A stretch of DNA of 51,135 nucleotides, taken from Girardia tigrina (taxonomy: Eukaryota). The position numbers and the translations under genes are program-made. The notes beneath the pieces were generated by a model. That model did no database searches. It had not been told where the DNA came from and saw only the letters and a program-made list of their open reading frames with translations. The DNA lies in NCBI GenBank assembly GCA_001938485.1, contig MQRK01177396.1, forward strand, positions 4,600 through 55,734, read 5' to 3'. This document shows positions 5,426-38,046 of the stretch, piece after piece; the first letter of the stretch is position 1, and each line of letters begins with the position of its first letter.

Positions 5426-8400
5426 TTAGGTGTACAATTATGAAAGTTCGCTTCACTTTGTCTAATATTTTTCCATTAATAAACTTTTTTCTATAACATT
5501 TGTTTGTGTCTATAATGTAGAGTGTTTGAGCGTTTCTAATACGTTTTGAATTTTTAAAAATAATAGCATATAAAATTTCATTGTAATTTTACAGATGACC
5601 ACCGAAGCTCCAACAAAAGAGCATTTGCGGGAAGTTCTTTTATTCATGTTTAACTCGAAGAAAAGTGCCATCGATTCTCAAAAAATGATGGCTGAAGTAT
5701 ATTGCGAAGATACAATCACTGCCAGAGCCTGTCAGAAATGGTTTAAGAGGTTCAGAGAAGGCGAATTTGATCTGAGCAACAGAGACAGCGGTAGACACCA
5801 AAGCAGTTTGAAGACACTGAACGCAACAACAATTAGCTGATGTGTTAGGTGTGACTCAGCAAACAATTTCAAATTGCTTGCATGACATGGGCAAGATTCA
5901 GAAAGAAGGACGATGGGTGCTGCATGAATTGACTGAACACCAGCAAGAAAATCGAAGAACAACGTGCGAAATTTTGCTTGATCGGCAGCAACGCAAGTCA
6001 TTCATGCATCGAATTATCACTGGTGATGAAAAGTACATTTATTTCGATAATCCAAAACGAAAGAGATCATGGACAGTCCTAGGATAGGCACCAAAACATC
6101 CTTGGAAAGAAGGTGCTGCTCTGCATATGGTGAGATTAGAAGGGTATTTTGTATTATGAACTTTGTAAACACAACTCTATTGATTTTGTTAAAATATAAT
6201 AAATAATTTAACTAAAAATATATATTTATATATAACTTCTGTATTTTAATTTTTATATAAAATAATAACAATAATAAAACCAAAAAGACTTACTACGGTA
6301 GGGCTATTCGGCACCGAAAATTTTCATATTTTTTTATTATTATTATTATATTCTCATTAAATGTTCTCTTTAATAAAAAATTATTTTTTTCCACAACCAA
6401 CATTTTAACTCTTATACGTGATTTTAAAATAAATTTATACAAACTCTTTTTTTTATTTTCTTTCATTAAAATTAAATTATAGATATATATATTGATATAA
6501 GAATCGTGATAATCTCAAGAAGATGCATTTTCCTTTATCGTTAAAATAAATTTATAAAAATATTTTTCTTATTTATATCTTCAATACCTTAAGTCTTTCC
6601 AAGATAAAAAAAAGTATGAAAACCCCTCAAATTTTATAATATTTTTATCTTTTGACAATTAAAAGATCTCTTCAAAAATTCTCATAAAAAATTTTCATGA
6701 AAATCTTTGAGTCTCACCAAGATAAAAAAAAGTATGAAAAACCCTTAAATTTTATAATATTTTTATATTTTACAAAAATGTACAAAAACTCTTAAATTTT
6801 ATAATTATTTTTTTTAATTTTTTTATATTGTTATCTTTTGACAATTAAGAGATATCTCTTCCAAAATTCTCATAAAAAATTTTCATGAAAATCTTTGAGT
6901 CTCACAAAGATAAAAAAAAAGTATGAAAAACTCTTAAATTTTATAACATTTTTTATTTTCATCAGTTATGAGATCTCTCTTCAAAAATTCTCATAAAAAA
7001 TTTTCATAAAAAAATTCTCATAAAAAATTATCATAAAAATTCTCATGAAAATCTATAAGTCTCACCAAGATAAAAAAAAGTATGAAAAACCAATAAATTT
7101 TATAATATTTTTATCTTTTGGTAATTAAGAGATATCTCTTCAAAAATTCTCATGAAACAATTTCATGAAAAAAATTACCGTGAAAAAATCTTTAAATCTC
7201 ACGAAGATAAAAAAAGTATGAAAACCTCTTAAATTTTATAATATTTTCTATTTTCATCAGTTATGAGATCACTTATCCACATTATCACAGATCCACATTA
7301 TTAATATGGATTTTCGTTTTAACATGAGCTCGATAGTAAGTTTGTTTATAGAATTTATTACAATTCTTGCAAAAAATATTTTGGATATTTGGGTTCATTT
7401 TTACATTGGAATTTTTTATGTAATTTCAATTTTTTGAATTTTTTTCTGAATTTTTTCGGAAATTTTTTTTTTAATTTTTGCGAATTTTTTCATTAATTTT
7501 TATAAAATCTTATAAAATTTTTATGATTTTTACTATTATTTTTTATTTTGAAAAATTTGAATCATGAACGTGAACAATAGAAATTTTATAGTTTCAGTCT
7601 AAGATTTTTTTGTTCGTGAACCTTGAACAGCATAAAGAAATAAAAAATTTTTGCTGATTTTTGACTGTTTTCGATATTATTTTTACAGATTTAAAAAACG
7701 ATAATAAAATTATATGATTTTTATTTTTATGAAATTTTATTGATTTTTGACTGTTTTTACTATTATTTTTATAAATTTCAAAACAGTAGTAAAATTAGTT
7801 GGAGAAATTTTTTACAAATTTTTTTGATTTTTAGCCGATTTCGAGGATATTTTTTAATATGAAATTTGAAGATTTTTTTCAGAAAATAAATCAATTATTG
7901 ATAGATTTACGAATTTTATCTATTTTATAGCTATTTTACTAGTAAATTTTATGAATTTTATCTATTTTATAGCTATTTTACCGGTAAAAATGAAGTCAAA
8001 GGCAATAATAGTCATTTTACCACGATTTTTGGTGTCCCAGAGACAATATTTTTGCTATTTTACCCTGATTTTGAGAAGTCTAGAATCAACATTTTAGTCA
8101 TTTTACCACGATTTTTGGCGGTAAACGAGCTATTGGCTTTATCCATCCCTTTATATACTAATAATGGTTTAAGAGGTTCAGAATAGGTAATTTTGAACTG
8201 AGCATCAGAGACCGCGGTAGACTACCAAAGTAGTTTGAAGACAATGAAGATGATGCCCAAACGCAACAACAATTAGCTGATGTGTTAGGTGTGATTCAGC
8301 AAATAATTTCAAATCGCTTGTATTACATGGGCAAAATTCAGAAGGAAGGACGATGGGTGCTGCATGAATTGACTGAACACCAGCAAGAAAGTCGAAGAAC

Positions 8401-9041
8401 AACGTGCGAACTTTTGCTTGATCGACAGCAACGCAAGTCATTCATGCATCGAATTATAACTGGTGATGAAAAATACACTTATTTCGATAATCTAAAGTGA
8501 AAGAGATCATGGACAGTCCCAGGAAAGACGCCAAAGATGACTCCCAAGCATAACATCCATGGAAAGAAGGTTCTGCTCTGCATATGATGAGATCAGAAGG
8601 GTATTTTGTATTATGAACCTCTGAAACCTGACGAAACTGTTACCGCGGCTCGTTATGGAGACCAATTAATCAATCTGAACAGAGAAGTTGCCCCCAAAGG
8701 ACAGTTATGGACCACAAGACACGAGTACCCGATATTACTTCACGACAATGCGAGACCTCTTGTCGCAAAATCGGTCATAAATACAATAAAAGAACTGGAC
8801 TGGAGAGTCTTACCCCACCCGCCCTACTCTCCTGGCATTGCTCTATCAGATTATCACTTATTTCGATCAATAGCTTGATAAATGGATTGCGTCGAAACAA
8901 CCGAAATTCTTTTTTGATGGAATCCATAAATTACCAATAAATTGGAATAATGTTTTTGTTAATAAAAGTTTAACTAATTTTTTTTTGGAATTTTAATTTT
9001 TTTAATCGTAAAGAAACGAACTTTCATATTTGTACACCTAA
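5426..9041 (+). mobile_element. Mariner (Mos1/mauritiana-like, DD34D) with internal duplication and about 2 kb foreign insert
   Basis: TIRs TTAGGTGTACAATTATGAAAGTTCG (5426-) and CGAACTTTCATATTTGTACACCTAA (-9041), flanked by TA and TG. Transposase motifs WFKRF, GRWVLHEL, TGDEK, HDNARP, HPPYSPGIALSDYHLF. Segment 5737-6161 is repeated at 8163-8618. Confidence 0.92.
6598..7270. repeat. AT-rich irregular tandem repeat, about 5 units of 120-190 bp
   Basis: AAGATAAAAAAAAGTATGAAAA anchor at about 6601, 6719, 6907, 7067 and 7204, with shared AAATTCTCATAAAAAATTTTCATGAAAATC blocks. Confidence 0.85.
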
Positions 9042-13475: not shown

Positions 13476-16243
13476 TGTTACATGTTAAATTTATTTATTT
13501 AATGAAATATTTAACATGAAAAAATCTGGATAATAAAATCTAGATAATTTCTTTAAATAAATAAAAGTATTTTTTGTTGAAAAATAAAGTTTATAGATTT
13601 GTTATTCGTTGTTACAAGCTATCCGGGCAATGATAAGAGATTTAAAAATTATACTCGATCATTTAAAGAAATTTAATGCAAAGGGCAGTTTTCAAATGCG
13701 GAAGAAAAAGTTCAAGATGATTATGAAATCCAGAGGATTTTGGATCCGGTCCCATATCTTCCTTTTTTGTTAACGGATGTTCCGTTAAATATATACATGG
13801 AATTGAATGAAAAGAAACAAAGCAACTGTGAAGAAGTGCTGCAAATCTTGGATAATTCATTCGGATTAACCAGACGATCTGTGTACAGTCAACTGATTTA
13901 TTTGAAATATTACGAATGACAAACTATTGACGATTAAGTTTCTCAAGTAAAGATGCTGGCATTAAAAATCGACAATCTGACCAAGGCAGCCTTTATGGCT
14001 CGATTGCCGTTCGAGTTGCAATTGAATTTAGAACAGGCCGGTGATCAAGATTTAACCGAAATGGTTGAATATAGTCGCAGATATTTAGGAATTAAAAAGT
14101 GCATCACACAAAGTTCAATGTCAGCGGTACAAAACGTTGGTGATGGAAAGATTGTTTCTAAAGAACGAGGTGAGGTCAACCGCGGTAGAAGGAGTTCCTT
14201 TATAAAACCCAGTATGCCACATAACGGAAATCTGGTACAAACAAGGGTAAACCCTTATGAAAATTCTCAGCGCCGATCTAATGGACAAATAATTTGCTAT
14301 AAATGTACGCAACTTTGACATATAGCAAAATATTGCAAGTCGGGAAACGGACAGGGGAGTTTGTAGACGCCGGCTCTCTCCCTCTGAAATTTCCGGAGCT
14401 GCCAACCATGACTGTCATTGTTAACAACAAGTCGGTTACAGCGTTGAAAGATTCAGGTTGCTCAAAAACTGTTGTTTTGAAAGGGTTGGTGAAGGGAAAC
14501 TCATTAAAGTCGAATGAGCAACGAATTGTTTTGTTCAGTGAAGGAAAATGAGATGAGAAAATAGTTGTCGAATTATTCGAGAAAATCAAATTTGTTTTGA
14601 AAAAAGTTAAGGAGGAAGATCCTTGTAGAGGAATATGGAGTATTGATGATTGTAAATACGGCATCATATGGTGTGATGCCAGTTCGATAGCCATTCGGGC
14701 AGCATTGTAAGTTATAGGAAATATTATAGAAGGTTAAGGAAAACTGAAGATTCTAGGCACTTAAACTTAGCAGAACTAGAATTAGTTATAAAGGGTCTAA
14801 ATCTGTTTATTAAATGGGGACTAACGAATGTTGTAGTAAAATCACATAACAAATCAGTTTTTTCTTGGATAACTGAGGTACTATCAGAACGAAATAAATT
14901 ACACACGAAAGCCTCTTCCGAGCTTTTGATAAAGCGTCGATTGTCAATGATTAAGGAGTTGTGTCAGGAATACGAAATAACTTTGAAAATTGAGTTTCTT
15001 AATAGTGAAGACAACAAGGCTGATGAATTGACAAGAATACCCAAACAATTAAAACGAAGCAGTTACCTTTTGTCTGTAACAGATGACCTATTAAAACTAC
15101 AGAAACTGCATGACAGATGTCATTTAAGTGCAAAGAGAATGCAATATCTGTGCGATAAGTTGGAAATAAATGTGTCAAATGCGGATATAAAGGATTTGAC
15201 CTCAAAGTTGTCAATCTATTGATCCGGCGCCAATAAAATGGGGACCTGGAAAATTAGCTGTCAATGAAAACTGGACAAGACTTGCAACGGATGTCACAAA
15301 ATTTGATCAACAAAATTCTTAAGTATCATTGATTGTGGACCCTCTCGATTTACTGTATGGAAACTAATCAAGGCTGAGGATGTCAAGTAGATTGTTACAG
15401 AGTTTTCAAATTTATTCTGCAAGTGTTTATTTATCTCCCACGGAGTTGATTATTGACAATTATACGACATTTTATTCAACAGAATTCAGCAAGTTGATGG
15501 AGAAATGGAATATACATGTCTTATACCGAGCTATTAATCGACCAAATTGCAACGGAATAATAGAGAGAAATCACAAGACAATCACGAGAATTGCGTCTAG
15601 ATCGAATATCAGTATCATGAAAGCCTTATAGTGGTATAACAACACACCGTCCGACGGAAAGGAGACACCTCGTTCAGCACTTTACAAGTACATTTCATTC
15701 GGTTTGGAGATAATCGAAAAAATTGAAAAGGAGCCGGTTTACAATAAGGTAAAGACAGACTTTGTAGAACAACAGTTAGTCTGGATAAAACTTGAAAATA
15801 ATATGCCATGTACAAAGCAATGAACAAGAGGTGTTGTCGTTAGGAAATTGGATCAAAGAAAGTACTTAATAAATTGTGATGGTTTTTTGCGGTCCACGGC
15901 ATATAGCAGATATTCGAACAAGACAACCTGACTTGCTGCGAAACTCTTACTCGGATTACATCTTGGAAAATAACAACGAATCAGCTTCGAGTGTTAAGCA
16001 AAATGAATCGGGAATCAGCAACAGACCCCAAAGAGAAAGACGAAAACCGAATTATTTGAACGAGTATGTAGTAGATATAGATTCTTGTGACGAAGAATCT
16101 TGGGGGAGTGTTACATGTTAAATTTATTTATTAAATGAAATATTTAACATGAAAAATATGGATAATTATTTGTTTATATAATATCTATTTAAAAGTATTT
16201 TTGTTGAAAAATAAATTTTATAGATTTTTTATTCGTTGTTACA
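13476..16243 (+). mobile_element. Compact gypsy-like LTR retrotransposon, RT domain deleted
   Basis: LTRs 13476-13616 and 16109-16243 (TGTTACA...GTTACA), TSD CGCCA/TGCCA, PPT GGGGGAG at 16102-16108. Gag from ATG 13630 with CYKC knuckle, protease LKDSGCS, RNase H DPCRGIW...WCDAS...HLNLAEL, integrase IDN...NGIIERNHKTI. No RT motifs between protease and RNase H. Confidence 0.93.
13617..13628 (+). promoter_or_regulatory. Non-canonical primer-binding site complementary to tRNA-Lys(UUU) nt 1-12
   Basis: AGCTATCCGGGC directly after the LTR-terminal CA. Its reverse complement GCCCGGATAGCT is the recalled 5' end of metazoan tRNA-Lys(UUU). Confidence 0.7.
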
Positions 16244-17609: not shown

Positions 17610-18412
17610 TTAGGTTGGGGAATAAGTTCGTAGCGTTTCTACCGAAGATTTTTATTTAAAGAAAAAACAATAATTATATCGATTATTTAATCAATTATAT
17701 ATTCGCAGTTGTTGTTTACAATCTCTTCCCACCTCTTGACCAAGTTGTAGATGCTGTTCCACCAAAAATTGCCTGGTCTGGTGTCAAAAAAGTTGTTGAG
17801 CTAGTTTTCAAGGACCTCTTTGTAATCAAAATGGATTAATAGGGAGCGGAAAAGATGGCAATCGTTCTGTGCAAAGTCTGGAGAATATGGTGAATGCTGA
17901 AGGACATCTCATTCGAGCTCTTGGAGTGCAGTTTTGATGATTTGTGCAACATGGAGCCTGTCTTATCATGAAGGAGTATGGTTTCATCCTCTTGATCATA
18001 TCTTTTCAGTCGAATAGAAGTGCGAATTGAATCCAGTTATCACTACGAGAACTTTCGAACAATCTTTAACTTAGAAGAGAAACGAAAGCAAACTTAATTC
18101 TTGAAAAGTTGGTATCGTTAGTATCGTTAGCCTTCCCATCAAACTCAAAACAATCCGAAATCTCATAGATGCAATTTGACTGAAATGTCTGACCAAATGG
18201 AAATCTGAAAGAACGTTGTGTTCTTTCTTTCCGAATTTTTTCCGAACATTTCCTGGTGCATATGCCCTCCAAGTCCCACCAAACACATATCATGATCTTT
18301 TTTGGATGAATGTCCTGCTTGACTCTCGGTTTTGGCGTATCTGCTGGAGCCACCAACTCCTGTCTTTGCTTTATATTGATTTAAGGCACCATTTCTCATT
18401 TCCCGTGTCGAT
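17610..18412 (-). mobile_element. 5'-truncated mariner (cecropia-like) with a foreign insert at about 18022-18250
   Basis: TA followed by TIR TTAGGTTGGGGAATAAGTTCGTAGCGTTT. Motifs TGNEKW, KPRVKQDIHPKKIMICVWWD and SIYNLVKRWEEIVNNNCEYIID*. Confidence 0.85.
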
Positions 18413-18629
18413 TCGGTAAAAAAAACACCATTAATGATTTTTTACAAAAAATCAAGTATAAATACTGAGTGATTTTGACAGAAAAAACGAAGCAAACAAC
18501 CAAGAAACTCATTTAAGAGGAAAGAATCGAGCGAATTGAATCCAGTTATCACTACGAGAACTTTCGAACAATCTTTAACTTAGAAGAGAAACGAAAATAA
18601 ACTTAATTCTTGAAAAGTTGGTATCGTTA
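18022..18629 (+). repeat. 99-bp direct repeat (18022-18120 and 18531-18629)
   Basis: GCGAATTGAATCCAGTTATCACTACGAG...GGTATCGTTA occurs twice with about 2 mismatches. Confidence 0.9.
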
Positions 18630-20940: not shown

Positions 20941-23900
20941 GCAGGACTTTTATTTGTTTTGATAATAAATAATTTGGTAAATGTTGTGTCATATGATTAA
21001 GGACTGTTTGTTTAAATGCTTAAATAAATAATTCTTTAACATTGAACTTGATACGACATGGAGATGAGGACAAAGTATTAAACTGCCTTTTCCACTATTA
21101 CAATTACGATTGTCCTATATTATTCATAATTCATGGCTACAATTACAATTCCATTTTTATCTCTGAACTACAATTCTGCCACCACATGATTGGAGCAGTT
21201 CAATTCATCTTGAAAATTCATTATGACAAGGCCGACCTGAAATTGGTGTTTTTGTCTTTCTGTGGCTCAGAGTGTTACAAATTACTTTCAAGCGTAGTGC
21301 CACTGAAGAATTTACTGGATGATTCATACACATTTTCATTTGAAGATGACAAGGATGTCAACAATCTCAGAATTGTTTTGTTCAATCATCTACGTCCCAA
21401 AATTATTCTTCATCATGAGAGACACAAGTTCTTCATGCTCAAGCAGAAATCTCTCTCTACTCAACCATTCGTTGCTCTCTTGCGACAATTTGCTGCATCG
21501 TGCAATTTTGGTGACCTTCTAGATAGTTTGCTTCTAACCTAGTTCATTAATGGGCTAACTGACACTACACTGCAAACGAGACTATTATTGCAGGCTAACT
21601 TGACATTGGACGTTGCAGTACAGTACTCATTATTACATGAAGCATCTTCATCAATCCAACCATCTATTGATTTTGTTTGCAAGTTTGACAGTCACCAACC
21701 TCAGGACAGCAAAAAATACAAATCTGAGGAATACAAATGCTTCTATTGCGGCAAAACCAACCAAATACGAAAAGACTGCAAGTTTCGCAATGCAAAGTGC
21801 TCAACCTGCCATTCTATGGGCCACATTGCCTCAGTGTGTAGAAGTAGCGAAAACAAGAAACCTGACAAGCACTTCAAAAGCACCAATTACCTCATGGTGA
21901 TAAATGATGATGTGGTAGCAACTTGCGACAATTCTGATCATGGGTTGAAGAAAACACTAAATGTCAATGGTGTTCCTATAACTTTTCTGTTAGACACCGG
22001 TTCTCCAGTCAAGGTTATTCCATGTCGTTTGTTGCCCATAACATCAACCCTACGACCATTTCCACGAGTACAATGTTACAATCGAAGCCCCTTAGACATT
22101 CTTGGTGCCACTGGTGTCACTATATTACATACTGATCAACCAATGGTTTTGGAAATATTATTAGTAAATGGTGATTTGGTACCCCTGTTTGGTCGCATTG
22201 CTCTATTTCTCTTCATATTTTTTCTGTGGCACCAATCACAGTGGACAACAATCTAGGTAATGTCTGTGCTGAATTGGTTCTAAAGCCAGGTATTGAATAC
22301 TCGAAATTTCCAATATTCAAACCTCGCTGACTTCCATTGTCTTTGCGAGAAAAAGTGGAAGAAAGCATCCAGGAACAATTAAAATGTGGAATTCTGGTTC
22401 CTGTCAGTAAAGCGATCATGGCATGTCCGATTGTCCCCATCCTAAAGGCTGATGGCTCAATTCGCATTTGCGGAGATTATTCTCTCACAGCAAATAAATT
22501 TATATATGCAGAACAATATCCTTTGCCAACCTTCGAGGACATAACAACTGCATCGTTTTCTCTCAGTTGGATCTTAAAGGCGCTTATTTGAAGCTTCCTT
22601 TATAAGAAGCATCTCAATGTTACACCACCATATCTACTCACATTGGTCACTTTAACTACACAAAACTGCCTTTCGGAATTTCTTCTTCTCCTCGCATATT
22701 TTAGCAGTTTATTGATCGTCTAATTTGTTTCCCAAGGGTTTGTAGTTACCAAGATGACATTCTGATTGGTGGATTATCTCAAACTGATCATGACACTACT
22801 CTAAAAATGGTCACGGATATTCTTGAGAAATACAAACTACAAGCCAATAAAGAAAAATCAGAATTCAACAAGTTATCAGTTCACTTTCTTGGTTATATAC
22901 CTTCTGCTCATGGTGTATCTCCTGATCCTCATCATTTGGCTCAAATCAACAAACTGCATTCACCAGTCAATAGATCTCAACTGAAATTTATCATTGGCAC
23001 TTTACAATTCTACTCATGTTTCACGCCAGAAATGAGTCAAATGGCAGCTCCTCTGTTTTGCTTGCTAAGCCCAAGAGTTCCTTTCAAGTGGACACCAAAG
23101 GAGGAGGTCACTCTTCAATCACTTGTATCCAAAATAAACCTGACATCAAATCTGGTATTTTATGACATCAAGAAACCGCTCTTTCTCTCTGTGGAGTCCT
23201 CATCCACGGGTTTGGGAGCTGTAATACATTGAAAATAATCTGCTGTAAGAAAATAATCAAATAATACATTGTTCATCACGCACTCTCTCCAGCTGAAAAA
23301 AAATGCTAACATAGAACTTGAATCGCTGGTTATTATCTTTGACATCAAAAGATTTTATCAGTATTTGGCAGGCAGATGATTCACAATTCTAACTGACCAT
23401 GCTCCACTAAAATTTATATTTAATTAAATACTTTAAGTAAATACTTTACAGAGAGAATTTCAATGAGACTTCAAAGATGGGGTTTAATTTTGAAATGTTA
23501 CGATTGTGACATTCAATACATCCGTGGTGAAGAAGTTTTCCTTCCAGATCTTCTCAGCTGTATTCCCGGTAGTAAAGACAGGGATGGAAAGCAAGAAGTG
23601 GATGACATTTTTGTTGCTCAACTATCTTTGGAGGACAAATTTCTTATTTTTAATGACTTGGAAGCTGAAACCAAATCAACTTTACTTAAAACGGTCATTC
23701 ATTGGGTTCAACGCAGTTGGCCTCACAGAATTAAGAAGAAATTTATCCCATACTCATCAAACAAATACGAATATACTGTGGTAAAGGGTTGCCTACACCG
23801 AGGACACAAAGTGGTAGTTCCACCTTCACTTCGTCAAGCTGTTCTTCGATTCTTTCATGAATTTCATCCAGGTATTATTCGCATGAGTCAACTCATGAGC

Positions 23901-24244
23901 CAGTTCGTTTGGTGACCGGGAATGGATGGTGATATACAAAAATTAATCAGCCAGTGTGATCCATGTGCAAAGTCTGAACAATCGAGAGTAAATTACTCAC
24001 CTTCTGCAGGGCCGGAATCAAGCAAATTCTTCCAATGGTTGTTCATCGACTTATTCTTCTTTGATGACAAGAGTTTCCTTACCCTAATTGATCATTTCTC
24101 TAACTTTGTAGACATTCATCTATTAAAGTAGTTATCTTCCAATCAAATCATCAGTGCTCTACAAAAGACATTCTGCTATTTTAGTCTTCCCGATATTATT
24201 GTGTGTTTTGTGGTCAGCTGTAATTGACTATCATCGGGGGATGA

Positions 24245-24412
24245 CACGATCTCGTCTGTGTTCACATTCCGCGCATAATAAACGGCCCCGAAGTTGCCGC
24301 AGCCGATCTGGCGCAAGTCCGTATAGGTGAGCGCGGGGTCGTGCTCGATTGAGAACAGACCTGAGATATCGGGTCGCTTCTTGAATATCGTCGGGCGAAT
24401 CGTGTTGGGCAT
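24245..24412 (-). pseudogene. TAOK: Captured 5' fragment (56 codons) of a TAO-family Ste20 kinase
   Basis: MPNTIRPTIFKKRPDISGLFSIEHDPALTYTDLRQIGCGNFGAVYYARNVNTDEIV matches the recalled TAOK1 N-terminus ([54 protein letters not shown]) and stops just before VAIK. Confidence 0.9.
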
Positions 24413-24650
24413 CTCTATGACGACAAGAGTGACGATGATGAGGCGATTATCGATTGAGAATGTCAATGGATTTTTCGAACTGACCAGATGCCAAAAGAAA
24501 ATCGGTAGAAAATAAATTACGAATTTTGTCGACTGCAGAGACACGCGCGTTTCGTCAATCGATCAATATTGAATATGATTGCGATTCGATTTGACGAAAC
24601 CAAAAGAAAATCGATAGAAAATAAAAACACGCCATTTGTTAAATTTATTT

Positions 24651-24697
24651 TTATGACAATTAATTTCGACGGTATAACCGTCATCGTCAGGTCTCAA
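24651..24697 (-). ncRNA. Hammerhead ribozyme, left arm
   Basis: TTGAGAC-CTGACGA-T-GACGGT TAT ACCGTC-GAAA-TTAATT-GTCATAA. Perfect 6-bp stem II and palindromic stem III ATTAAT. Confidence 0.8.
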
Positions 24698-25190
24698 GAA
24701 AGAAATGAATTTTAAATCTGCTTATATAGGCAAGCAGTGATTATGTCATCCATGGATTATTATGTCATCTAAACACGCTTAATAGGGTTTTCGAGAGACC
24801 CGTTTGCACATTAATCTTAGGATCTAAAGATCTGATATAAAGTGCTTCACAGGCCACCCTCTCCCAATAGTTTTTAAAACGAGAACACAGAATTTTAAAA
24901 TCATTTATGTTTATGTTATATAATAATATATTATGTTATATAATAATATTATGTTATATAATGTTTATGTTATATAAACATAAATGATTTTAAAATTCTG
25001 TGTTCTCGTTTTAAAAACTATTGGGAGAGGGTGGCCTGTGAAGCACTTTATATCAGATCTTTAGATCCTAAGATTAATGTGCAAACGGGTCTCTCGAAAA
25101 CCCTATTAAGCGTGTTTAGATGACACAATAATCCATGGATGACATAATAACTGCTTGCCTATATAAGCAGATTTAAAATTCATTTCTTTC

Positions 25191-25237
25191 TTGAGACCTG
25201 ACGATGACGGTTATACCGCCGAAATTAATTGTCATAA
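25191..25237 (+). ncRNA. Hammerhead ribozyme, right arm
   Basis: Same as the left arm with one stem II mismatch (ACCGCC). Confidence 0.75.
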
Positions 25238-26516
25238 AAAATAAATTTAACAAATGGCGTGTTTTTGTTTTTAAACATAATTTGCCATTATTTTTTAATT
25301 TTTTGATAGAAAATAAATTACGAATTTCTTTGATTATAATGTTTTCTGTTTTATTTAACGAATTATCGATAGAAAACTTTTTGAAAATGAAATATGAAAT
25401 CGAATTATTTTCAAATTCAAATACATGAACTTTGAATAATGTTTATTTTACAAAAAATCCCGCAAAAGCTTTTTACAAATTTATTGACATTAATCCTGTT
25501 AAACAAAAAAATATTGAAATTCCAATTCACAATTAAATAAACAGTTTTTGATAAAAAAGAATTCGTATTATTTTATAAAATTTATTTTTTTATACAAGTA
25601 TTTCACTAAATAATATCATTTCTTCAATCAACAAAAATCATTTTAATAAACGAACAGCAAAAACAAAAAAATAAAATACAATTTTGAAATGTCAGGCAGA
25701 TATTTAATAATTATGTGTAATTATAAATAAGAAATATCGGATTTTTTATATATATATTTAATATTTATAAATACTGATTAAAATTTTGTGTCAAAACTGT
25801 GTGTGATAATGGAAAACAATTTGTCTCCAAGGAATTTTAATCTTACCTTTCAAGTTGCAATATTGACCTCATATTAACTCCAACATACCATTCACCAAGC
25901 AATTGAAAAGCTGAACGAGCAATAAGGAGTGCAAAACTATTTTTATCCAAGAATCTGACTGAAATGGGTTCTGTGGAATTCTGTTTACATCAGTATTGCA
26001 TCGTCAACAATTTCTTCCCTAGCTCAAACGGCACAATTCCCTCAACGGAATATTTGAAACACTCTCCTAAAGTCTTAATGAGGAAAGCACTACTGTCATA
26101 TAAGCAGGGCATAACGGAAGTGGCTATTCCACAAACACAAATGGGAACGACTATAGTTCCAATATCAGGTGGTCGACTAGCTCACAATGAGGGCGTGTTC
26201 CATGAAGAAGCCCGAAGTAGACGCGTTCGTCAACCAAACTCTCGTTACTTCAATAAAAACTTTGTAAATTAATTGTGGGGGGATGTTGTGTCACATGATT
26301 AAGGACTGTTTGTTTAAACGCTTAAATAAATAATTCTTTAACCTTGAACTTGATATGATAGTAAATCTTTCACAAACCTTTACAACACAAAACAGCATCA
26401 AAATATTTGATAAATTTTGAAATAAAAGATATCGCGCTTTACTCACATTTGTGCTTTCCGAAATCAAAGGATTAATTCTTTCATGCAGCAAATAAATTCC
26501 AACAAAACGTTTTTTC

Positions 26517-34215: not shown

Positions 34216-37200
34216 TGTAAGTTTGAACAAATTGAGAGGAAACAAAAAAAACAAATCACGCTTTTAACAAAAATTTATTGTTACGACAAAACCCTGAATA
34301 TTCAAACAAAATTTTTCATCAATAATTATATCGCCACCTGAACCCTAGTTCATATAATCGTTTAACCAATCAGGTCTCTTCCGAGTTCTGCTGGATCGTC
34401 GTATGCAAATGTCCTGATTGACTTGATCGTCAGATTCTTCCTCGTAACTACTACTACTGCTGCTATATCCATCTTGTATTTCGTTTTTGCCGTCAACCGC
34501 CATATCCGGCAGTTCGATGTTCTATTCTTGTCTCTGTCGTATGTCCTGAACGTGTCTCGGTACTCCATCAACATCAACACACTTATCACTAACCACCTTT
34601 GTAACGACCCCCGGTGTCCATGTCTCGGTACATCGTGTATGTTGATGAGGTTTAATAAACACCTTATCACCGATTTTCCATTCATTTTTTACCGTTTTTT
34701 TCAGCTAAATCACGCATTTCTGGTAATCTGATGTTATATCTGTATATAGACTCTGCTGGAACTACCTTGTCTTCACCTTTTCCGCGAGGTACTACATTGT
34801 AGTAAAATACTGCTTTCCATATTGGAATATCAGACCTCTTCGCAATTCGTTTAATTGTGTGATAGCATCTCTCCACAATACCATTTGTTGATGGCCTATG
34901 TGCCCATCTATAAATAATATTTACTCCCCATGAGTTACACAACATTTTGAATTCTGATGACCTAAACGCAGTTACATTATCCACCAAGATTTGTCATGGA
35001 GGTCCTCTTTCTGAAAATACAATTTGACATTGTGCAATCACATTCTGAGCCGATTCAGAATTCACGCGTTTCGATACAGAAAATCTACTTAGTCCGCAGT
35101 CTATCATTGACAAGTACGTAATACCATTGTAATGTGTATGGTCTAACGCGAAACGTTTCCAATTACTTTGAATACTTAACGAATCATGAGTTACTTTCTT
35201 CGGTGACGGATCGATAATGTTGCATTTATTACGCTCTTTTATCACCCTTTTAACTTCATCAACGTCTGCTGCTATCCCATATCTCTCGAGTAAATAAATG
35301 GTCTTTTCTACATCCATATGGTGCAAATTATGATGCTCTCTGATGTCAGATATTGCAGATTTACACTCACTTACAGTCATTGCTACATTTGGCTTTTCCA
35401 TATCTGCAATATTCTTCTCTGAATTTATCCACATACATTTACATCGAAGATCAAATTCTCCAATTATATCTTCAATCATTTTTAAACGACGCTTGACCAA
35501 CATTTCATTTATTCCAATTTACTTTCATTTTTTTATTCCGATCAACAACGGAGTTTAACCAACCATATACTACTTGAGAATCTGTCATTATGTCAAACTC
35601 TTTCACGTCTCATTTCAAGATCATATTTAATCCTTTGATCACCGACTCTAGTTCAGCTACATTTATATGACTCGAATCATCTTCTTTTCTAAGCAAACTA
35701 CCGTCTTCTAACGTATTCCCATTACACTCAACAACACATACTGTTGCTATCTTACTTGCATCGCACCACACTTTCCATTTAGTTGACGTTGATGTTGGTG
35801 TATTCCATACGCCCTTCACAGGATCGTCTTTATTTACTCTTTCTAATAAATCATTCATCAAAACTTCTGTTATACGTGATACCGGTTGATTCCATTCGAT
35901 TCCGTTACACATTCGTTTTAAATAGCTTCACGATACCATCAACCATCCACATACAAGATAGTGTCCAGTTAATTTACCACAGATAGAATAAATTAGTTCC
36001 TTGGTCATTACTTGATCCTCCGCTATATTAATATTATTCGTTCTTTTCCACATCAATACGTTTTGCTTCAAATACATCTGAAGCCCAAGAACTGTTGTCG
36101 TGCTAATTTTCTCTGGTTCTTTACATATCAGTCCATAATTTTCTAAATGATTTCTCACTTCCGAAACCGACATTATATTTTCATCTACAATCAAGTCGTC
36201 CACTTAATGAGATACCCCTTTTTTAAATACATTCTGAGTTTCTAAAATAAAGTCTAGTATTCTATTCATGATCTTCGGAGCTGAAGCCAATCCAAAACCC
36301 AATCGAGTTAATTGATGTATACAATCATTAATAAACACTCGCTGATATTCCCACAGATCTTTTTCAACATGTATCCGTAAGTACGCATTTTTAGATCAAT
36401 AATTTTACAATTTCCAGATATTTTTTCTCCACTTGCGGAGCGATTCACTAACTGCTATTGTATCCACCGTGTGAGAATGAATAAACTTATTAACCTCCCT
36501 GAAATCCAAAACAGGTCTTACCTTCCCTTTTGCTTCTTGCTTCACACACATGAGATGAATAATTCCATTCTTGTTTCTCTCAACTGGGACCAGCCATCCG
36601 TTATTAATCCATCTTTCCAGTTCCTTAAAGTACTCCTCTCTGTCTTCTTCACTCACCTTATATGGAGCCACAGTGTTTAGTAGAATTGGTTTTATGTCCT
36701 TCCATTTCCATCTTACCACCCATTGACTACCACCAAACCTTGCTGTGAAGTCAACATCATCGATCAGTGTGCACTCTACCAAATTTTTTTCTACTCGCAT
36801 AATCTATGACATGAAGATTTATCTTCTCATCTTGTATGTTCGAATTCCATGACACATTACCATCTATATCAATTTGAATACCTTATTTCTTTATCAAATC
36901 CATTCCGAAAATCGCATCAACACCAGATACTAGTTTATTAATCACTAACATATCACTATTTACTCTTCTTCTTCCTACGGTTACTTCAACACTAACTTGC
37001 ATTTTATACTCTACTTTTATTCCACCCACTCCAGTGAGCCATCCTCCTTTTTCGTTTATCTCTCCACAGCATACTTTTCTCTCGATCATACTCACCGTGC
37101 TGCCGGTATCTAACAGTGCCTGGACCTCTATACCATTTATCCAAGCACTCACAATTGGTAGCGTCTGAATTATAATAGGAGAGCCAGCGACGCCTACTGC

Positions 37201-38046
37201 TCTCCATTGTAGTTTAAATTATTGCAATTCCTTGCAAAATGGCCCGGTTGACTGCAAGTATAGCATTTAGCAAAATATGTTTTATATAGGTGTCTCTCAT
37301 CCGCCTTCTCGACACCGTCATTGGACTTTTGTGACATTTCTTGGGGAGCGTTCTGCCACAAACGTTTCCCATCACGTCCTTGTGGCTGTCGGACATCATC
37401 TCAAATCAATTTATTCCTGACGGCCAAAACATTTTTTTCTCGATTTTCCCTTAAAAATACATCGGCCTTACTGGCAATACAATCTAAACTTATCTTTGAA
37501 TATTCGATCAAAGTTTGTATTTTTTCCTTCACATTCGACAGAAAAGAGCTGATAAAAAATAACCTTACTGTATTTTCGTCGGTAATGCGATATTTTGAAC
37601 ATAAGAGCTTTATATCACTCAATAAACTCTGGGCATTTTCATCGCCGTTCCATTTTCTTTGCTTCAATTCATCAAAAACTTCCACATCATTTTTTTTAAA
37701 CATTTCTTTCAATGCCGATTCGATTTCATCGATATCGCATTTCCGCGATTTATTTAATTAACCCAGACATCATATGCCTTACCTTCCAGCAACATTGGCA
37801 TGGCTTTAGCCAAATCTTCATTAGCTACTTCAGCTATGACTTTAGTGCGATCGAACCACTTCCCAATATCCTCTTCTCCATTGTATTGTTTAACAGTTTT
37901 AATCAATGTCTTCATCTTGGCCGAGTAGCTTGTAAGTTTGAAAAAATTGAGATGAAACAAAAAAAAACAAATCACGCTTTTAACAAAAATTTATTGTTAC
38001 GACAAAAGCCTGAATATTCAAACAAAATATTTCATCAATAATTATG
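34216..38046 (-). mobile_element. Full-length decayed compact gypsy-like LTR retrotransposon (3.8 kb), same lineage as 13476-16243
   Basis: LTRs of about 115 bp at 37931-38046 and 34216-34330. Gag from ATG 37915 with CYTCSQPGHFARNC, protease LLDTGS, RT KVRPVLDFREVN, LTRLGFGLASAPKIM and H*VDD, RNase H DPVKGVW..WCDAS..HINVAELE, integrase VDN..NGIVERCYHTIKR. Confidence 0.95.
37919..37930 (-). promoter_or_regulatory. Non-canonical primer-binding site complementary to a tRNA 5' end (N7-TAGCT pattern)
   Basis: Element strand reads LTR-CA|AGCTACTCGGCC|AAG ATG. The complement GGCCGAGTAGCT fits tRNA positions 1-12 with U8 A9 G10 C11 U12. Confidence 0.6.

Follow-up and report, generated by a model that had tools for sequence, protein, structure and literature searches.

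A putative primer-binding site antisense to the 5' end of host tRNAs in a DUF7047-bearing clade of LTR retrotransposons of Girardia tigrina

On the minus strand of the window analysed here, a stretch of 51,135 nucleotides of a Girardia tigrina contig (MQRK01177396.1), lies a decayed LTR retrotransposon of 3.8 kb (element B), whose 5' LTR is immediately followed by a 12-nt site antisense to the 5' end of a host isoleucine tRNA. Comparisons within this genome, protein databases and metagenomes indicate that the feature is real, clade-wide and follows host tRNA 5' ends. A primer role is strongly implied by the position of the site, and we propose, with a probability of roughly 0.65, that a 12-nt 5' piece of the tRNA, cut by the RNase H of the element, primes minus-strand DNA.

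Results

Anatomy of element B

Read along the minus strand, element B shows the LTR end CAAACTTACA, the 12-mer AGCTACTCGGCC (37930-37919), AAG and the gag ATG (37915-37913), which bears out the layout given in an earlier, sequence-only reading of the window. The 5' LTR (37931..38046, minus strand; ~115 bp, with a CA end) was delimited by self-BLAST, with 95.7% identity to 34216-34329, and its first base differs from that of its pair, the 3' LTR (34216..34330, minus strand; 115 bp, 95.7%). Since the 3' LTR (34216-34329) sets the boundary, the LTR end is known independently of the motif. The putative primer-binding site (37919..37930, minus strand) adjoins the LTR with a spacer of 0 and is followed by the AAG and gag start codon (37913..37918, minus strand).

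The coding region, likewise on the minus strand, comprises gag with a CCHC zinc knuckle (37194..37915), broken by frameshifts and stops; an aspartic protease (36886..37160; Pfam RVP, E 2.6e-9); a broken reverse transcriptase with a DUF7047 (PF23088) segment (35930..36803); and, both broken and with approximate limits, an RNase H domain (35440..35780) and an integrase with HHCC finger, DDE core and C-terminal beta domain (34525..35340). A slippery-type heptamer is found at 37212-37218, close to the gag/pol overlap, and a purine-rich tract (34331..34348, minus strand), degenerate in the window copy, adjoins the 3' LTR. No clean target-site duplication was found around the window copy; a perfect 5-bp duplication was present in 7 of the 16 two-LTR clade copies inspected, including one of the element B family (L117). 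Element B and its clade thus display the marks of LTR retrotransposons, namely two direct LTRs with CA ends, a purine tract and, in other copies, a target-site duplication.

Match to host tRNA-Ile(AAU)

The site AGCTACTCGGCC is exactly antisense (12/12) to the first 12 bases of host tRNA-Ile(AAU), a closer match than the 10/12 to human tRNA-Ile(AAU) given in the earlier reading. The search of host tRNA genes suggested there found the complementary 12-mer head in three complete tRNA-Ile(AAU) genes (ARAGORN; one in L002, two in L158), and two further heads, broken off, carry the same 12-mer (L006, L013). In the 1.43-Gb assembly, the Ile-type 12-mer occurs 103 times vs 20 for its reversed control, and the first 30 sites comprise 27 adjoining an LTR and 3 tRNA heads. 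The pairing spans tRNA nt 1 to nt 12 and ends at both sides: beyond the site there is no pairing to the pre-tRNA leader, and at the LTR end the extra pairing of tRNA nt 13-22 is weak and unconserved.

Acceptor stems are self-complementary, and for this reason the strand followed by the site was examined. At a G:U wobble pair of tRNA-Ile, and likewise of tRNA-Lys, the base in the site forms a Watson-Crick pair with the 5' strand and is unlike that of the 3' strand. No TGG was found near the element B junction. Complements of the site reach at most 3 nt within the LTR of the element (5 nt in element A, described below) and 7 nt within the whole element (6 nt in element A). For a fixed position, an exact match to any one of 60 tRNA heads would arise by chance with a probability of ~2e-7 per junction, and the pattern recurs with five isotypes, which speaks against a chance match, as the earlier reading had argued.

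Copies of the element B family were also picked by RT similarity (27 loci, 20 of them chosen for having no listed exact match; in 14 the junction was unalignable or degenerate). The site was present in 13/13 well-aligned junctions with 0-3 substitutions, so that the N7-TAGCT pattern expected of the family is kept.

A second antisense match was noticed in element B: the stretch 37913-37922 (minus strand), made up of the final four site bases and AAGATG, is also antisense to tRNA-Ile nt 63-72, in the T-stem and 3' acceptor strand. Of 27 junctions, 22 retain AAGATG, and a match of this kind was not seen in the Lys, Tyr or Phe families; it may be due to chance or represent a second anchor.

Element A and other families of the genome

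Element A, on the plus strand of the window, belongs to the same clade but to another family. Its 5' LTR (13476..13616) is followed by a putative primer-binding site (13617..13628) exactly antisense to nt 1-12 of host tRNA-Lys(UUU), and its 3' LTR lies at 16109..16243, with a 5-bp target-site duplication bearing one mismatch; protease and RT are mostly deleted in the window copy. The sequence-only reading had described elements A and B as dissimilar and independent. The first claim holds for DNA, as neither LTRs nor internal DNA show real blastn similarity, but not for the proteins, which are homologous (tblastx E 9e-51; pol identity ~35%). The second does not stand: by their proteins, A and B are homologous members of a single DUF7047-bearing clade, and the geometry is therefore inherited rather than of independent origin.

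The window holds other repeats. A third, unrelated gypsy-like LTR element (20981-26358, plus strand) has a 76-bp LTR match and a conventional TGG-type site at 21059, and contains an inverted-repeat insertion with 283-bp arms (24641-25247). Two 99-bp direct repeats (98%), 509 bp apart, surround non-coding DNA at 18022-18629, a TRIM-like size, with no TG...CA ends as far as read. By eye, 5737-6161 and 8163-8618, which are 86% identical, look like mariner-type transposase fragments.

Across the assembly, the Lys-type 12-mer has 2443 sites (11 for the reversed control), of which 24 with sufficient flanking sequence fall into ~9 clusters, and the Phe-type 12-mer 1122 (8 for the control), with ~19 clusters among 29 sites. 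Phe-type sites match the head of tRNA-Phe(GAA) exactly (12/12), which the assembly holds as overlapping fragments only: heads in L256-L259, and pieces from D-loop to 3' end, with GAA anticodon and complementary acceptor strand, in L361 and L363. The Tyr-type 12-mer, first seen in the RT-selected locus L100, has 81 sites vs 4 in the control; 80 of the 81 match one tRNA-Tyr isodecoder (CCGATG), and a single LTR family accounts for 17 or 18 of 20 loci read. Conversely, Thr-AGU, Thr-YGU and Ile-UAU heads before an LTR end were unenriched (degenerate pattern, 111 vs 133 in the control), the 30 loci read for the Thr/Ile-UAU pattern being mainly point mutants of Lys/Phe sites or background, and no Met-type site was found in this genome (0 vs 5 in the control). 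The genome counts cover Ile, Lys-UUU, Phe, Tyr, Thr and Met heads.

Furthermore, junctions were inspected without regard to the motif in 60 RT-selected loci plus the window copy, which yielded 19 repeat pairs, 2 of them spurious and 1 unresolved (42/60 loci had no LTR pair). With the LTR end fixed by the 3' LTR, all 16 resolved junctions start with AGCTA, and none has TGG within 0-5 nt of the LTR.

A sister family of element B, grouped with the Phe families, pairs to tRNA nt 3-12 only in 16/18 RT-selected copies, and no tRNA with a head matching this 10-pair type was found (27 of 51 sites read). The conserved 12-nt geometry claimed earlier thus holds in that matches end at nt 12 across isotypes, but this one family keeps only 10/12 pairs. 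Two loci (L090, L109) combine the RT of the 10-pair Phe family with a different LTR end carrying a full 12-nt Phe site, and are possible recombinants or nested elements.

Some loci depart from the common pattern. L053, L056 and L221 have CAT, not CA, before a Lys-type 12-mer, near clade RT-RH and without gag. A clade member at L099:1235-5579 has a coding region visibly G+C-richer than the host-like families and LTRs resembling L108, and is a possible horizontal transfer or recombinant. As for the tRNA genes, many truncated tRNA-Tyr, -Ile and -Phe genes (L161-L175, L256-L259, L361-L363) keep their genomic upstream flank and break after 25-50 nt, and no complete tRNA-Phe gene was found in the assembly; tRNA arrays may have collapsed, or repeats may have captured the genes.

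Phylogeny of the clade and isotype changes

An IQ-TREE tree without an outgroup was built from 48 RT-RH-IN rows, after dropping 26 near-duplicate or doubtful rows from 74; the loci with a Lys 12-mer and no CA junction (L053, L056, L221) and one too short (L216) were excluded. The Ile family clusters with the Tyr family and one Phe family (100/100 for SH-aLRT/bootstrap), and its sister is this Phe family (92/99), not Lys; the Lys families of this genome form their own branch (100/100). On 30 rows, parsimony requires five isotype changes and the AU test rejects a forced Ile+Lys clade (p-AU 0.014). The switching between isotypes proposed earlier is therefore supported by the trees, but not as an exchange between Lys and Ile. 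Phe was likely the isotype used first, from which Ile, Tyr, Lys and Met were each reached by a switch of their own, given that Phe is spread over most branches of these outgroup-free trees.

Relatives in protein databases and metagenomes

The pol protein of the clade matched 643 clusters at E<=1e-30, with DUF7047 in nearly all of the 120 clusters listed. Few clusters are named, and these derive from a gastropod, two crustaceans, a nematode, a bryozoan and an insect (Plakobranchus, Petrolisthes, Trichuris, Watersipora, Palaemon, Macrosteles). A metagenome scan gave 56 loci, from the best 80 of 223 matches, and 42 of the 56, in ~38 families, include the gag start and upstream DNA.

A site of the tRNA-5'-end type was present in 41 of the 42 relatives with intact gag start, by a pattern written after the data were seen and on contigs that mostly hold one LTR only. 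The sites were typed against tRNA heads of this host and of Drosophila. The Phe type accounts for 32 of the 42, 12 of them identical to the Phe site of this host, with variation concentrated opposite tRNA nt 5-6. In 9 of these 32 the site reads AGCTATTTCGGC, antisense to Drosophila tRNA-Phe nt 1-12 as given in the probe table of PMC7038984. Beside the Phe type there are one Lys-type, one Met-type, three 10-pair types and one a single base off the Drosophila type, and in three relatives the site is 2-3 bases off every tRNA head checked. The sole relative without a recognisable site of this type upstream of gag (L293) lies on a long branch. In most families, the gag ATG stands 2-30 nt behind the site.

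The Met-type relative (L300) is informative with respect to AGCTA, which had been called invariant between the two elements of the window. Although this holds for all resolved junctions of the genome, the first base of the L300 site is changed from A to C (CGCTA), as nt 12 of elongator tRNA-Met predicts, with one mismatch to the Met head of this host; the junction is placed there by the terminal inverted repeat of the LTR. The element thus tracks tRNA nt 1-12, not an AGCTA motif.

The catalytic D-E-D-D columns of RNase H are conserved in 68-69 of 69 intact relatives. Viral contigs held no relative of the clade; four of their tRNAs have a similar head, all Thr or Val, and are uninformative.

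Discussion

Proposed priming mechanism

In different families the site matches the heads of four host tRNAs; it adjoins the LTR, ends at tRNA nt 1 and nt 12, and is shared across a widespread clade. Minus-strand synthesis starts at the LTR edge. In the mechanism we favour, the RNA of the element would invade the 5' acceptor strand of the tRNA and the 5' side of its D-stem, and antiparallel pairing would set tRNA nt 12 at the LTR edge. An intact tRNA therefore offers no 3'-OH at that point, and a cut between nt 12 and 13 would be needed, most likely made within the RNA duplex by the RNase H that the element encodes, in the way described for Tf1 and its 11-nt self-primer; the freed 3'-OH of the 12-mer would then prime minus-strand DNA. 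The predicted duplex is worth -25 kcal/mol, vs 10-14 kcal/mol to free nt 1-12 of an unmodified tRNA, modifications being ignored. The conserved D-E-D-D would allow primer cutting; since every LTR element requires an RNase H, its conservation is not in itself a pointer to this function. A strict 12-nt primer copied back in each cycle misfits the sister family of element B, as only 10 pairs are kept there; the family can thus do without the two distal pairs, and the primer apparently does not restore them.

The most serious competitor, although improbable, retains the same tRNA 5' piece but attributes its making or trimming to a host nuclease, so that a ready-made fragment is captured and the RNase H is uninvolved. 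All sequence evidence for the RNase H model fits it equally, and among TAGC-bearing tRNAs only Phe, Lys-UUU, Ile-AAU and Tyr are used, with Thr, Ile-UAU and Met unenriched, which could reflect fragment supply. Nevertheless, pairing stops at nt 12, inside the D-stem, in every isotype, as would suit an enzyme that measures its cut from the end of the duplex, whereas short 5' tRNA fragments are usually cut in the D-loop and are 14-16 nt or longer.

A still less probable reading leaves the tRNA whole, with its 5' end positioning the enzyme and synthesis starting from the 2'-OH at nt 12, as a retron-like branch, or without a nucleic-acid 3' end. It would agree with the lack of a 3'-OH at nt 12 in intact tRNA, with the 10-pair sister family, which suggests a site not refreshed by primer copying, and with an RT distant from those of Ty3 and retroviruses (best RT matches in PDB at E ~5e-11, 11-14% structural identity). 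On the other hand, in its domains and RNase H the element resembles any ordinary LTR element, and we know of no LTR element that primes in either of these ways.

It is quite unlikely that the site serves not priming, which would take another route, but the binding of tRNAs or their 5' fragments for packaging, control of gag translation or host silencing. The proximity of the gag ATG means that a bound tRNA could affect translation; yet the site lies exactly where minus-strand synthesis must begin, without a spacer, in 16/16 resolved junctions, and neither a TGG site nor self-complementarity (at most 3 nt in the LTR of B and 5 nt in that of A) offers another primer. Finally, chance, a degenerate canonical 3'-end site or Tf1-type self-priming is barely credible, for, although self-complementary acceptor stems make part of the site resemble the tRNA 3' strand and ten bases overlapping it in family B are antisense to tRNA-Ile nt 63-72, the wobble positions follow the 5' strand, nt 8-12 are matched too, a CCA end would meet mismatches, the chance is ~2e-7 per junction, and the pattern recurs with five isotypes; counts, junctions and wobble positions rule out these readings and a copy of the 3' strand alike.

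If the element's RNase H cuts as proposed, one would expect a defined tRNA cleavage at nt 12/13, an enzyme possibly able to unwind and cleave folded tRNA, and control by 5' tRNA fragments, not 3' ones.

Classification

The pol order PR-RT-RH-IN with an HHCC/DDE integrase is that of Ty3/gypsy (Metaviridae), and the termini are also Ty3/gypsy-like. Comparisons with PDB, fold and atlas entries confirmed that PR-RT-RH-IN is of retroviral type, without giving the clade a name. The Ty3/gypsy RT-RNase H profiles PF17917/PF17919 were unmatched in two clade proteins (P0002, P0016), which matched RVT_3/RNase_H and DUF7047 instead, and Ty3 matches the clade profile in the integrase only; for these two reasons the clade is not filed under a named Ty3/gypsy lineage. 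It may perhaps be listed in supplementary material as MolGy/PolGy or as a Repbase Gypsy entry. The RT/RNase H motifs of the clade (P0002 / alignment A1) are DLxxAY, RLGFGL and HINxxEL, which may resemble DIRS-type motifs, although the element carries a DDE integrase.

Comparison with known systems

Three primer types are distinguished for LTR retrotransposons by Neumann et al. (PMC6317226): a whole tRNA, a half tRNA arising from a cut in the anticodon stem (Ty1/copia only), and a self primer; Kojima 2024 gives sites for the 3' end and the anticodon loop (PMC10886601). No description of a site for the tRNA 5' end was found in the accessible portions of the full-text literature, where site sequences were also queried, Repbase and subscription journals lying outside this scope. 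Such a site would be a fourth primer type beside the three of PMC6317226. We hold it about evenly balanced whether this large, apparently unnamed, deeply diverged DUF7047 lineage, with hosts in several animal phyla, represents a fourth primer class, whose RT/RNase H opens the acceptor and D stems of a mature tRNA, cuts after nt 12 and primes from the 12-mer at its 5' end. If true, this would amount to Tf1 self-priming in a trans-acting form, and to a class of tRNA fragment made by a retroelement. Pipelines that, as described in PMC6317226 and PMC13524379, compare tRNA 3' ends only would score the whole clade as having no PBS.

Canonical 3'-end priming, as in retroviruses, Ty3/gypsy and BEL/Pao, shares with the clade a tRNA-specific site by the 5' LTR, TG...CA LTRs, a purine tract and a 5-bp target duplication; the clade differs in lacking TGG, in recognising the opposite end of the tRNA, and in having no spacer between LTR and site. 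Half-tRNA priming (Drosophila copia, Ty5, Osser, Bryco, Bianca, fungal Copia/Helenus; PMC6317226, PMC10886601) likewise uses a 5'-side fragment with changing isotype. There, according to the same papers, the sites pair with the anticodon stem or loop and are confined to Ty1/copia, whereas here nt 1-12 (acceptor 5' strand and D-stem) are paired and the order is RT-RH-IN; with a junction match at nt 1-12 and integrase after RNase H, membership in the half-tRNA group was rejected. Spliced-leader priming in Oikopleura Tor elements, considered as a parallel, was not borne out by the accessible part of PMC4402516.

The closest likeness is to Tf1, Tf2 and Tj1 of the Tf1/sushi group, Ty3/gypsy chromoviruses with self-priming (PMC7175516, PMC4600332, PMC6317226), which also have a short PBS (11 vs 12 nt) on the very 5' end of an RNA, and in both cases the primer 3'-OH must come from a cut at the end of the RNA duplex; in Tf1, according to the review PMC7175516, pairing covers 11 nt and RNase H cuts between bases 11 and 12. 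The 5' end there belongs to the element's own transcript, whereas here it would be that of a host tRNA acting in trans. Moreover, the LTR contains no complement of the PBS in this clade, and Pfam gave no chromodomain match. A tRNA 5'-end site would thus bridge self-priming and tRNA priming, whose order in the evolution of LTR elements has been debated (PMC3601003).
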